From positions 3,717,962 through 3,781,961 of the forward strand of contig CAVNZM010000007.1 in assembly GCA_963693365.1 (NCBI GenBank): a DNA stretch of 64,000 nucleotides. The letters are read 5' to 3'. Made by a program: the position numbers and the translations under genes. The stretch is from Amoebidium appalachense (taxonomy: Eukaryota; Protista; Ichthyosporea). Below, in pieces: positions 17,101 to 51,700 of the stretch (positions within the stretch are counted from its first letter, which is position 1; each line of letters begins with the position of its first letter). The notes under the pieces were generated by a model. That model had not been told where the DNA came from and ran no database searches. It was given only the letters and a program-made list of their open reading frames with translations.

Positions 17101-20100
17101 GGGGGAGAGAGAGGGGGGTTGGAGGAGAGGTGAAGAGGAAGAAGAGAAGGTGAACGGTCAGGAAGGCGAAAGGGCGTATGGAAGATCACGTGTGAAGCCT
17201 ATTTTCAGTTGCCCTTTTTGGGTGCCGAGGGTTAGTTAATGATACAATGATATTTTGTCCATTGCTTGTAGACGCGCAAAACTGCTGTATGCACTTGTCT
17301 AGTCTCCAGTAGCCCCTATCCCCCCCCCCCCCCCCCCCCCTCCCCCCCCCCCCCTGCTTGTTTTCTTTGTTATGGTCTGTTTGCAGGTACTGTAGGCTCT
17401 TGTGTTCTTAGATTTCTGCTCCTTGAACAACCCTGCTCGTCTTTGGCCAAGACGGGTGGACTCGCCTATTGCTGTTGAAACGAAGTATGGGTTGGGAACC
17501 ACACGCAAGAGGTTAAATAGTCGAAATCCGTGCTTTTGTGGAGGCATAGGAACTCCCCTGATGATGGACTCTGTTCAAGTGTTTTCCGCCTGCACGTTCT
17601 TATATTTTCTATTTCTATAATCCGATCTCGAGGTTTTTTGGTTTATTTGTGACGTTTTGTGATGTCTCCTTTGATGTTTCCTCCATGTTTCCAACCATGT
17701 GATGCATACATCGTCCCCCCCCGCCCCCCCCCCCCCCCCTCGGGTACTGTGGATGACGTGGGCCCCCCCTGAGGATGGGCTCTGCTTATTATGCATACTC
17801 TTTATGTATGGCTTGCATTCTGCATCGTGTTATCCGTTTGTTCTTGTGTACTTCGTACTTTTTGACGCATTCAAAACCCCCCCCCCCCCCCCCCCCCCAA
17901 CCCTGCCGGCTCCTCCCCCTCTGTCCCCTACCTCGACTTGCATATCACCTGCACTAATCACGGCATTCACACAACCATCTACAACAAGCTCGACACACCC
18001 ACGTTCAATACACTAGACATCGTTCGTTTCCCACATCACGACTCATTCATCTCCCGCACTGCAAAATACGTCATCATGACAAGTCAACTGCATAGCTACC
18101 AGCGCAAATGCTCCACACTTGCTGCATTCACCACATGCACTGCACGACTTGCTAAAACATTGCTTAACAAAGGCTACTCGTTTAGACTCTTGCACCACAA
18201 AATTCACAGCTTTCTCGCCACACACCCGCACATATACCGTGGCGTTCACTCCTCTCACATACTCTCCATCATCACTAAAAAGATCAACACTCCCTAGTCC
18301 CCCACTCTATCCCGGTTTCCCCCCCCCCCCCCCCTCCCCCCCTACCAGCCCCTACACCTCCCCCCCCCCCCCCCCCCCCCCCTCCCTCTCTCTCTCCCTC
18401 TCCCTCTCCCTCTCCCTCTCTCTCCCTCCCTCTCTCTCTCTCTGTCTCCCTCTCTCTCTCTCTTTCGTTCTCTCTCGTTCTCTCCCTCCCTCTCTCTCTC
18501 TCTCCCTCTTCCCCTCTCTCCCCCCTCTCCCCCCCTTCCCCTCCCCCCCCCCCCCCCCCCCCCCCTCTCCCCTCTCTCTCCCCCCGCTCCTTTTCCCAAA
18601 CAATTCCCCCGCCGTTCTTCTTTCTCAGCCGGCTAGGTTTTTGGGTTGCCTGGTAAGTTTTGAAATGGAGGTCTCGTCTCTGATCTGTCCACCACAGGGT
18701 TTTTTATTTTTTGTTTTTTTTTTTTTTTTTTTTTTTTTCCCTCTCTCTCCCCCCCCCCCCCCCCCCCCCCCCCCCCCCCCCCCCCCCCCCCTTTTTTTTT
18801 TTTTTTTTTTTTTTTTCCCTCCCTCCCTCCCCTCCCCCCCCCTTCCCCCCCCCCCCCCCCCCCCCCCCCCCCCCCTCTCCTTTTTTTTTCTTCTTTTTTT
18901 CTTTTTTTCCTTCTCCTCCCCCCCCCCCCCCCCCCCCCCCCCCCCCCCCCCCCCCCCCCCCCCCCCCCCCCCCCCCCCCCCCCCTGGCCAAACCCTGTAT
19001 ACACTCTTCTCATCAGCAGGTCTCTAACCCACTCTGCAGAACGTTTTACGCATTTCTCCCCTCGGAGAACTTGGTCGTTGGTGCGTTTTTGTCTGACATC
19101 TAACGACTCTGCAGGGTCCCCTGAGACTACTGACACTCTAACATTCCCTCCCCTCTCTTACTTCACACCCCCCCCCCCCCCCCCCCCCCCCTTCCCCCTC
19201 CTCCTTCCCCTCCCATTTTCTCTGCACACTCAACAGGTCTTAACCAGCTCTGCACATCGTTAGTCACAATCTTCTCACATATATGAGAGAATGATCGTAT
19301 TGGTACGATTTGTCTAATATCTGACGATTCTGCAGCATCCCTAAGACCCCCCTCCCCCTCCCCCCCCCCCCCCCCCCCCCTCCCCCCCCCCCCCCCCCTT
19401 CTCTCTCTCTCTCCTCCCCCCCCCCCCCCCCCCCCCCCCCCCCCTCTCTCTCTCTCTCTCTCTCTCTCTCTCTCTCTCTCTCTCTCTCTCTCTCTCTCTC
19501 TCTCTCTCTCTTTCTTTTTTTTTTTTTTTTTTTTTTTTTTTTTTTTTTTGGCGCCTGTTGTTTTGCTTGTCATTTGTTGTTCTAATTGATTACCTGTAAT
19601 CTTCGCTTATTTATGTGTGTGTGTGTGTGTGTGTGTGTGTGTATGTTGTGCGGGGTTGCACATACCGGTGTCTACTTTTCTTCTTACTGTTTTTCTCTCC
19701 ACACACTTCATCTGTCCACTTCTGCATACCCCCTTTCATAGCTATAGACACACTTCACACATTGCGTTACGCGCACGCATGCACACACCGCTCTGTTGGC
19801 GACAGCTCCCTTGGAACCCATGCGGCATGTTACCCGCCGGCGTAACATAACTCGGACTATCGGTTTGGCTTTTTTCAAGCCCAAAGCAATGGGTGATACC
19901 ATATTTCCGGCTGACATCCGGGGGCATAGCTTTCCGTTCGAAGACGATAAAGTTCCGCCCTAGTAAGCGTGTTACTACCCTGCGGCGTGGGTCAAATCTC
20001 ATATTTTCCCCTCTGATTGCGAATTCTTCGGCCTTCGGGACTTAATTCTTTTCAGCTGGTGTAGTATGTTAGCCAGGGAAGTATCGACTTAGGTATCGAC

Positions 20101-48700: not shown

Positions 48701-51700
48701 ATGTATGTTGTGCGGGGTTGCACACACCGGTGTCTACTTTTCTTCTTACTGTTTTTCTCTCCACACACTTCATCTGTCCACTTCTGCATACCCCTTTTCA
48801 TAGCTATAGACACACTTCGCACATTGCGTTACGCGCAAGCATGCACACACCGCTCTGTTGGCGACAGCTCCCTTGGAACCCATGCAGCATGTTACCCGCC
48901 GGCGTAACATAACTCGGACTATCGATTTGGCTTTTTTCAAGCCCAAAGCAATGGGTGATACCATATTTCCGGCTGACATCCGGGGGCATAGCTTTCCGTT
49001 CGAAGACGATAAAGTTCCGCCCTAGTAAGCGTGTTACTACCCTGCGGCGTGGGTCAAATCTCATATTTTCCCCTCTGATTGCGAATTCTGCGGCCTTCGG
49101 GACTTCATTCTTTTCAGCTGGTGTAGTATGTTAGCCAGGGAAGTATCGACTTAGGTAGCGACGGGGGAGCTTCCTAGAAGCCCCGTCTCCTGAGTTCCTA
49201 TCTATATTTTTCTTGCTTCTGCTTACTGCTGCAACTTTAACCCCCGGCCTTTCCCACTGCCCTTGCCTGCATAAGCAACCCTGCTCGTCTCTGATCAACA
49301 CGGGTGACCTACCCATGTTCAAGTGAAAGAGTATCTGAGTTGGGTTTCGTTAACGAGGTGAATAGGTCGAAACTCGGGTACTGTGGATGACGTGGGCCCA
49401 CCCTGAGGATGGGCTCTGCTTATTATGCATACTCTTTATGTATGGCTTGCATTCTGCATCGTGTTATCCGTTTGTTCTTGTGTACTTCGTACTTTTTGAC
49501 GCATTCAAACCCCACCTTCCCCCAGGGGGTTCTATTTTATGGTATGATTTCGGTTTTTCATCCTTTGGTCTCTTCTCCAAATTTCCAACCTTATAATGTT
49601 AAAAATCACGCAGGCTTGTTGACGGTCAGCCCGACGCGGAACGTGCCGAGGCCAAAGCGGCGCAGATGAGAGAGCTGGCACAGTCCCCAGACATCTACGA
49701 CAAGCTGGTGTCCTCTATAGGTGTGTGTGATTGTGCACATCCAGTCAACCATACACCCTATCCCCCCCTTTTTAGCAAGCATATAAGATCTCGTGCTGAT
49801 TGCAATGTGACCCTACGTCCCCCCCTTCTCCGTCCCCCCTCCCCCTCCCCCCTTCCCTCCCTTCCCTCCGTGGAAGTCCCGCCCCCCCCCCCCCCCCCCC
49901 CCCCCCCCCCCCCCCCCCGAAAAAAAAAACAAAAAGAAAACCCCTTCCTCTCAACTCTCTATCATTCGTTCTCCTTCGTTTTTCAATGTTCTCTTCCGTC
50001 AATTCTTCATTGTGCCGTATTTCTGATTCAAATTCTCCCCTTCAGCGCCCAGCATTTGGGGCCAGGAGGACATAAAACGGGGAATTCTGTGCCAGCTTTT
50101 TGGGGGCAGCAGCAAGAACTTTGAGGAGCATGGGTTCGGGCGGTTCCGTGGGGACATCAACATTCTGCTGTGCGGTGACCCGAGTACCAGCAAGTCCCAG
50201 TTCCTCACCGTACGTGTGCCCTGTGTGTGCCTATAACCCCGTTTTACCTATTCTCCCCCTACCCCTCCCCCCCTACCCCCCCCCCCCCCCCCCCCCCCCC
50301 CCCCCCCCCCCCTCCCCCCCCCCCCTCCCCCTCCCTCCCCCGGTCCGGGTGCGCTGCCCGTCCGTCTCTCTTTGTCTCCGTCCCTTCCTCCCTCCCCCTG
50401 CCTGTCCCTACCCCTCTTTTTCTCCGTTTCTCTATCTCTATCCCCCCTCCCTCCCCCCCCCCTTCCCCGCGCGCCCCTTCCTCCTCCGCCATTCCACCCT
50501 CCCTTTTGGTGTTGGAGCTGGTCTTGTCATTTGATGATCATTGGAAAGGGTGGGTGTGGGATTGGGGGCTGGGGGGTTTTGGGGACGGGGGCAGGGGGGG
50601 GGGGGGGGGGGGGTGAGGGGGGAGAGACTCTCACCCACACACCACATGCTTATGTCTGGACGTACACATGAGCAAAAACACGCGTGCACGCGCGCGCACG
50701 CACGCACGCACGCGCGCGCGCGCGCGCACACACACACACACACACACACACACACACACACACACACACACACACACACACACACACACACACACACACA
50801 CACACACACACACACACACACACACACACACACACACACACACACACACACACACACACACACACACACACACACACACACACACACACTCAACTCACTC
50901 ACCCAGCCACCCACCCAGCCACCCACCCACCCACCCGACCTCCCCCTTCCCCCCTCCCCCTTCCCTCCCTCCTCCCCCCCTCCCCTCCCCCCCCCCCCCC
51001 CCCCCCCCCCCCCCCCCCCCCCCCACACACACACACACACACACTAACCCACCTCCCTATCCCCCATATACAGATGGTAAACAAACTCGCAACCCGCGGT
51101 ATCTACACGAGCGGCAAAGGCTCCAGTAGCGTAGGCCTGACTGCTTACGTCACCAAGGACCCAGACACCAATGAATTGGTGCTTGAAAGCGGTGCCCTCG
51201 TTCTGTCTGATGGGGGTGTGTGCTGCATCGATGAGTTTGATAAGATGAATGAGACTACGCGATCAGTGCTGCATGAGGCTATGGTAAGTGTACGTGGGTG
51301 TGGGTGTGTGTGTGTGGTGGTGGTGGTGGGGGGGGGGGGGGGGGGGGGGGGGGGGGGGGGGGGGGGGGGGGGGGGAGGGGGGGGGGGGGGAGAGGGGGGG
51401 GGGGGGGGAGGGGGGAGGGGAGGGGGGGGAGGGGGGGGGGGTGGAGGGGGGATGTGTGTATGTGTATGTGGGTGGGGTGTGTGTGTGTGGTGTTTGTGTG
51501 TGTGTGTGTGGGGGGGGGGGGGGGGTGGATGGGTGTGTGTGTGTGTTTATGTGAGGTGCGTGTGCATGTGCGTGCTCCATATTTTGCTTGTTTCTGTTTG
51601 TTTCTCCAAACGTCACATATCTACTTCATCCATGAATCCCAACCATATCTACCCACCCACTTTCTCCACAAATAATCACCCTGTCCGTTTCTTCCAAACA

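Follow-up and report, generated by a model that had tools for sequence, protein, structure and literature searches.

We analysed a 64,000-nucleotide (nt) window of the nuclear genome of the ichthyosporean Amoebidium appalachense (GenBank assembly GCA_963693365.1, contig CAVNZM010000007.1), in which a family of repeats carries a putative hammerhead ribozyme near the 3' ends of its units. The repeat units share common 3' ends followed by C-rich runs, while their 5' ends vary, as in 5'-truncated insertions. Five ribozyme copies lie in four introns of the host MCM4 gene, which matched an Amoebidium parasiticum protein in EukProt at 100% over a 70-aa query. All five are on the sense strand of MCM4, an orientation that may be explained by its poly-C runs, which are mostly on that strand (54 sense vs. 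14 antisense).

The original prediction, made by reading the letters of the window, named seven near-complete copies and one truncated copy (42366). When three type copies were searched against the window with BLAST, all eight were present where they had been placed, along with at least nine partial copies (Table 1). We keep the earlier start positions as names for the eight. However, “near-complete” is generous for two of the seven: 49269 has a stem Ia of only 2 bp, and 46006 is short of 5 nt. Likewise, the 42366 copy does lack the 5' arm of the closing helix, but this is not its sole loss, as the 5' strand of the first hairpin is also gone. The sequences CUGAnGA, GAAA, and GUU are intact in seven of the eight copies, the exception being 15954, which reads GAAC and CUGAUAA, and the hammerhead core as a whole (CUGAnGA, GAAA, NUH, G10.1-C11.1, and A15.1-U16.1) is likewise present in 7/8. 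The nucleotides expected at the cleavage site (U20279, U47507, and U17493) were also found at these positions. Stems I, II, and III surround the core, with stem I split in two and stem II drawing on an upstream strand.

Hammerheads of types I to III share the circular strand order CUGAnGA-GAAA-site. The copies instead read site-GAAA-CUGAnGA, so the predicted departure from types I to III held. Eckert et al. 2023 (PMC10085705) have described the order under the name type SGC. The original prediction pointed to animals as the source of swapped hammerheads; the available text of that study reports type SGC from metatranscriptomes. There, the hammerhead is split into blocks C, G, and S, and three uninterruptible blocks allow six orders; block C comprises CUGAnGA with its two flanking strands and is assumed to be uninterruptible. 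Still, standard models do miss the RNA: the whole window gave 148 Rfam matches at E<=1, and none was a hammerhead.

The copies are 89–100% alike within a subfamily and 54–81% alike between subfamilies A, B, and C. Across the subfamilies, stems III, Ia, and Ib and the closing helix change in sequence but keep their pairing, as predicted. A descriptor of the site-GAAA-CUGAnGA order matched seven times on the forward strand and never on the reverse strand, compared with a mean of 0.06 and a maximum of one in 200 block-shuffled windows; because it was designed with these copies in view, this control is evidence of rarity and not of catalysis. A four-block descriptor, which includes the stem II strand discussed below, gave six matches in the window and none in the 200 shuffles. 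That a young repeat shows the pattern by accident, or that it is an artefact of assembly, seems a very remote possibility. The near-identity of copies within a subfamily and the richness of the genome in simple repeats would fit such an origin, but the pairing kept between divergent subfamilies, the rarity of matches in shuffled windows, the presence of the subfamily A stretch in sequencing runs of eight studies (no RNA run among those listed), and the recurrence of the layout in animals (judged by eye, see below) all speak against it. Read from the sequence, the hammerhead-like RNA is real and conserved, and its permutation is new.

What makes the permutation new is the position of stem II. 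Two strands could pair with the one that precedes GAAA: one after CUGAnGA-UG and one upstream of the site block, beginning at 20244, 47471, and 17459 in the three type copies. The original prediction chose the former, making the RNA a type-SGC hammerhead with a two-nucleotide UG insertion before the 5' strand of stem II. This did not hold up: the downstream strand is nearly invariant and reliant on G.U pairs, and none of its six pairs changes on both sides, whereas three of six do so with the upstream partner. With the upstream strand, 90.5% of alignment cells are paired, and the first four pairs are all Watson-Crick. We counted these pairs on alignment A3 (seven distinct rows, three subfamilies), because the first MAFFT alignment, A2, had shifted the subfamily C strand by one column. 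The upstream helix is the stronger in 6/8 copies (in 20207, −6.7 vs. −1.5 kcal/mol downstream). Contigs differ from the window at 20248 and 20302, two positions paired in this stem, but these differences are unphased, may belong to subfamily B, and were left out of the count. We therefore regard the type-SGC arrangement with inserted UG as improbable, even though the downstream strand can form 4–6 bp in all eight copies, is the better partner in 15954, and would stay within the insertion of one or two nucleotides that Eckert et al. permit (a single U is common in their SGC patterns, PMC10085705, available text). The bases after A9 can pair in P1a instead, and in all seven groups of animal elements described below, a downstream partner of at least 3 bp is absent as judged by eye. 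A switch, in which both strands serve in inactive and active folds, for example to delay cutting during transcription, appears marginally less probable again. In every copy, either strand does match the one partner, and the two are identical (GACU) in 17422; yet the downstream strand does not track changes in its partner, and the animal elements dispense with it.

The remaining helices fit the upstream choice. P4 begins right after the upstream stem II strand, pairs just before the 3' strand of stem I, and varies between subfamilies; it is the helix that connects stem I with stem II, a type-SGC trait, in 7/8 copies and is shortened in 46006. With stem II and P4 placed in this way, the RNA is a strand cycle of type SGC whose opening lies between A9 and G10.1. 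Hairpin P2 ends at G10.1, and P1 starts just after A9, so both would hold the ends of this break together. As deduced from the sequence, the full order is P1-P2-stem II 5'-P4-kink-turn motif-III-GUU-stem I 5'-(3-4 nt)-stem II 3'-GAAA-III'-P4'-stem I 3'-CUGAnGA-P1', a topology stranger than the one originally proposed, in that an upstream strand replaces the downstream one in stem II. We hold with good confidence that the RNA is a ribozyme that uses the upstream strand. Two canonical readings were rejected. A type II fold is ruled out on reading by the lack of an NUH with a matching stem I after stem III, and tandem units cannot yield the canonical order because the strand cycle itself is reversed.

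Table 1. Copies of the hammerhead-like RNA, parts of the subfamily A type copy, and associated features (window positions; helices and cut sites are predicted)
Feature	Position	Strand	Details
Type copy, subfamily A	20209..20361	+	P1b 20209-20215:20355-20361; P1a 20217-20219:20349-20351
Hairpin P2, just before G10.1	20221..20243	+	Loop with self-complementary UGAUCA (UGGCCA in subfamily C)
Stem II 5' strand	20244..20249	+	G10.1 = 20244; partner 20301-20306, C11.1 = 20306
P4, kink-turn motif, and stem III region	20250..20334	+	
P4, subfamily A type copy	20250-20255:20329-20334 plus 20257-20259:20326-20328	+	
Kink-turn motif, subfamily A type copy	20260-20264 with 20324-20325	+	Bulge 20260-20262; G20263.A20325, A20264.G20324
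Stem III, subfamily A type copy	20266-20278:20310-20322	+	
GUU triplet	20277..20279	+	Predicted cut after U20279, by analogy with the hammerhead core
Stem I 5' strand	20280..20297	+	Ia 20280-20282, self-complementary insert 20283-20294, Ib 20295-20297; partner 20335-20340
GAAA core strand	20307..20310	+	
CUGAGGA core strand	20341..20347	+	A9 = 20347
Subfamily C copy, intact core	17422..17579	+	G10.1 17459; predicted cut after U17493
Subfamily C copy, damaged core, without kink-turn motif	15954..16110	+	
Subfamily B copy, 5'-truncated within P2 loop	42366..42503	+	Sense, MCM4 intron 41941-42780
Subfamily B copy, 5-nt deletion in P4	46007..46162	+	Sense, MCM4 intron 45852-47134
Subfamily A copy, tandem behind B unit	46592..46743	+	MCM4 intron 45852-47134
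Subfamily B type copy	47434..47594	+	G10.1 47471; predicted cut after U47507; MCM4 intron 47223-48121
Unit of the 47434 copy	47264-47708	+	Partial 3'-end copies on either side: 47239-47257, 47722-47832
Subfamily A copy, five substitutions (Ia 2 bp)	49271..49423	+	Unit 48628-49510; MCM4 intron 48288-49615
Partial copies, starts	17739, 47239, 47722, 48482, 53642, 55222	+	BLAST against the window
Partial copies, starts	2244, 2768, 5345	-	BLAST against the window
The three reverse-strand copies, decayed or truncated	2244-2092, 2768-2661, 5345-5279	-	Two behind exon-like frames ending at GT
Longest subfamily A unit, 899 bp	19550..20448	+	Cleavage site 169 nt before 3' end; poly-C after
5'-truncated 3' end of subfamily A, 138 bp	17739..17876	+	Directly upstream of reverse transcriptase piece
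5'-truncated C-terminal reverse transcriptase piece, Penelope-like	17899..18297	+	98% identity to P0004/P0001, which come from the transcriptome of the same organism
Host MCM4 gene	39476..55725	+	23 exon stretches match the 823-aa EukProt Amoebidium parasiticum protein P0025

The consensus kink-turn has a C-stem and a bulge of 3 nt, together with G.A and A.G pairs in tandem. A motif of this form lies between P4 and stem III in 7/8 copies, and it is missing solely in 15954, the copy with the damaged core. All three subfamilies have similar arms, with 16–17 nt from the kink to U16.1 and 15–16 nt from G10.1 to the bulge. Rough geometry with a 16-bp stem III arm, a 6-bp stem II, and a 10-bp P4 left a gap of 42–56 Å in the monomer between ends that are covalently joined, compared with 6–29 Å for a short-stem comparison. 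Stem III and stem II together would be ~15 bp longer than P4, although this is less well supported than the fold itself, and the monomer therefore could not close without melting helices. The P2 loops are self-complementary in all subfamilies, switching from GAUC to GGCC with self-pairing energies of −7 to −11 kcal/mol, and the stem I insert is self-complementary in 7/8 copies. For subfamily B, RNAfold gave P1, P2, P4, and stem III probabilities of 0.9 or more. Single-strand folding z-scores (−0.3 to −2.2) were uninformative because the fold is a pseudoknot.

The prediction of a non-circularly permuted hammerhead was well supported, and the choice it posed between monomer and dimer was the right question. 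We propose that the RNA would fold as a long hairpin, in which the loop bears the site and GAAA and the foot bears the 5' strand of stem II and CUGAnGA. Loop and foot would dock via stems I and II, with P1 and P2 substituting for the backbone step from A9 to G10.1. The cut after GUU would require the mutual docking of two copies, the cores being built by tandem copies or by two molecules, possibly joined by the self-complementary P2 loops. Cutting would then release RNAs of unit length from tandem transcripts and would affect single copies in introns only slightly. We give this dimer step a little better than an even chance. Dimer-dependent hammerheads of low activity, slow in vitro, have been described for other Penelope-like elements (PLEs) in partly available reports.

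An alternative is a hammerhead-shaped signal that does not cut alone, and that either depends on a helper (the protein of the element or a kink-turn binder of the L7Ae family) or binds the reverse transcriptase. The slowness of PLE hammerheads in vitro would suit this, as would a partly available account of a lizard PLE, whose hammerhead cut only with protein and at whose site no read ended. So would the five sense copies in MCM4 introns, given that a spliced 823-aa product is nevertheless on record. However, the core nucleotides are all kept while the helices turn over, both here and in distant animals, and related permutations cleave without protein, at 0.004–0.19 per min in vitro for SGC and CSG RNAs (PMC10085705, available text). 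We consider such a signal unlikely, though not negligibly so, and continue to favour the self-cleaving, docking RNA.

The repeats that bear this RNA resemble Chlamys PLEs in their (C)n targets, their truncated 5' ends, and their arrangement in partial tandems, all present in the window. A candidate autonomous partner lies nearby. The proteins P0004 and P0001, to which the reverse transcriptase piece is nearly identical, have an N-terminal GIY-YIG domain without CCHH and without the cysteines seen in P0003, CxC and DKA motifs, and a C-terminal reverse transcriptase. On its sequence features and the available description in PMC8557442, the P0001/P0004 element is of Chlamys type. Viral contigs held no relative of P0001, P0002, or P0003, and no solved structure matched P0004 by sequence. 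The single juxtaposition of repeat and reverse transcriptase, at 17739-20448, runs from a subfamily A fragment through the reverse transcriptase piece and a low-complexity spacer (18298-19549) to a full subfamily A unit, which looks like a partial tandem arranged around the reverse transcriptase piece. For the link between ribozyme repeats and the autonomous element, we judge the odds to be modestly favourable. Together, these observations suggest that this is likely a self-cleaving four-block hammerhead near the 3' end of poly-C-inserted repeats, probably tails of Chlamys/Naiad-type PLEs or non-autonomous derivatives, and that it would cut after GUU only upon docking of two copies.

The spacer itself holds further structure. 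Between the reverse transcriptase stop and the A unit are two structured modules on the forward strand (19016-19127 and 19236-19347), 70% alike, each following a CAG that resembles a 3' splice site; both the outer and the inner helices differ in sequence between them yet remain paired, and neither module has an Rfam match. A short exon-like stretch at 18629-18658 (+), between a pyrimidine tract with CAG and a GTAAG, may be a non-coding exon that the element splices.

Naiad and Chlamys elements are described by Craig et al. 2021 (PMC8557442, available text) as lacking canonical hammerheads, with “HHR_core” or “HHR_half_core” sometimes noted without a fold; the main text contains no match to the word stem for ichthyosporeans. 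We searched the consensus file of that paper for core motifs and judged the matches by eye: 19 places in one search, 56 of 62 for CTGATGA, 29 of 87 for CCGAAA, and matches 10-25 of 25 for CTGAGGA, 10-23 of 23 for CTGACGA, and 10-39 of 43 for CTGAAGA, with motifs split by line ends being missed. Among the matches listed, the four-block layout was found at 10 Naiad ends from seven unrelated groups, with fully different helix sequences. These were the records ending before Naiad_Mley, Naiad_Aacu, Naiad_Anas, Naiad-1_Movir, Naiad_Ovul, and Naiad_Omin, plus one place in part 9, two in part 12, and one in part 19 of the file. In 7/7 groups, stem II formed with the upstream strand (4–6 bp), and in 0/7 was a strand of at least 3 bp on offer after A9. 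In most of them, P1 starts no more than 2 nt from A9, and P2 ends at or beside G10.1. Five further Naiad places from four groups (parts 13-16 of the supplement) had the type CSG order with the same P4, and several places in parts 16-19 had the core but fit neither form.

These parallels suggest that the four-block RNA is likely the missing ribozyme of Naiad/Chlamys elements. A broader reading, which we offer tentatively and rate somewhat short of even, is that hammerheads with a non-circular permutation, one of them opened inside the core between A9 and G10.1, serve this clade in hosts as far apart as an ichthyosporean, ctenophores, corals, nematodes, and octopuses. The Amoebidium form would then work solely as a loop-to-foot dimer, with a kink-turn bending it and kissing loops joining the partners; because it would cut nothing but tandem transcripts, essential genes could tolerate it in their introns. 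If so, this would answer why Naiad/Chlamys elements seemed to be without hammerheads and would make the role of the ribozyme in PLE transposition testable. A cutter that is active only as a dimer and whose free ends sit in a helix of their own would, moreover, be useful for design.

Several points weigh against these interpretations. Regarding stem II, both options are equal in 17422, and the core-damaged 15954 copy favours the downstream strand; the three subfamilies in the window provide few independent changes, the result of 0/500 shuffles for the upstream stem II ignores the relatedness of the copies, and alignment A3 was begun at the proposed upstream strand. The core has a stem I split into 3+3 or 3+4 bp and a GUU site. 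RNAfold favours another register in subfamily A (P2 0.32, P4 0.07), and the monomer gap comes from a rough estimate, not a 3D model. The reverse transcriptase piece and the A unit may be separate insertions, because a 1.25-kb spacer follows the reverse transcriptase stop. The Naiad comparison was made by eye, not by tool alignment, and among the matches listed, neither form was found in a Chlamys consensus. Finally, in another PLE described in a partly available source, the hammerhead depended on protein from the element, and insertion in vitro proceeded without the hammerhead.

Other features of the window are as follows. A gene at 14080-21538 (+) encodes a Zn2Cys6 and ERT1/acuK-type PAS transcription factor, in which the copies from 15954 to 20448 and the reverse transcriptase piece appear intronic. 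An AT-rich open frame at 21879-22180 (+), followed by poly-C and poly-A and without a Pfam match, may be the end of another retroelement. An Agd3-like polysaccharide deacetylase with CBM87, a family known mainly from fungi, is located at 24206-27969 (−), and a tandem repeat of ~160–180 bp, visible as recurring reading frames, at 30809-31330 (−). A GH20 beta-hexosaminidase frame of 402 aa at 61859-63064 (+) is intron-poor amid an intron-rich region.

No description of the four-block layout was found in the searched literature, which covers few subscription papers. One paper mentions hammerhead variants with additional helices (PMC13725137, available text), and no such fold was found in the available text of one source it cites (PMC10162972). 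A pattern scan of metagenome contigs gave only one match, L001, which was dismissed as chance because it lies within an apparent bacterial coding sequence and the rest of the motif is absent; viral contigs gave no match to the RNA pattern.

Among known systems, type SGC (HRIMA-1 and variants) comes closest. It shares with the Amoebidium RNA the site-GAAA-CUGAnGA order with blocks S, G, and C in sequence, the full core, a link of 3–4 nt from stem I to stem II, and a helix that connects these stems on their other sides. However, type SGC has the 5' strand of stem II 0–2 nt after CUGAnGA, where a strand of the Amoebidium RNA can pair but does not covary; here the 5' strand of stem II has moved to the 5' end, splitting block C between A9 and G10.1, a break that falls outside the block scheme and search patterns of Eckert et al. 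(PMC10085705, available text). The Amoebidium RNA also adds P1, P2, the kink-turn motif, and a split stem I, is ~155 nt long compared with 104 nt for the longest RNA in that text, and resides in a nuclear genome rather than in metatranscriptomes; the available text gives neither SGC nor CSG forms in the genome of a known organism. Type CSG, reported there from two metagenomic sequences, is the same strand cycle opened elsewhere, and hence a circular permutation, but its stem II strand directly follows CUGAnGA. With Naiad/Chlamys PLEs, as far as available descriptions go, the shared features are the N-terminal GIY-YIG, CxC, and DKA in the protein of the neighbouring element, insertion at (C)n sites, 5' truncation, partial tandems, and the lack of a canonical hammerhead. 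The minimal type-I hammerheads of PLEs and retrozymes (Cervera and de la Pena 2014, PMC4209133; bioRxiv 10.64898/2026.07.22.740005, available texts) likewise sit in terminal repeats of PLEs and their non-coding derivatives and are thought to act as dimers in tandems. By contrast, they keep the canonical order and dimerize through stem III, whereas the Amoebidium RNA is predicted to dock loop to foot via stems I and II.

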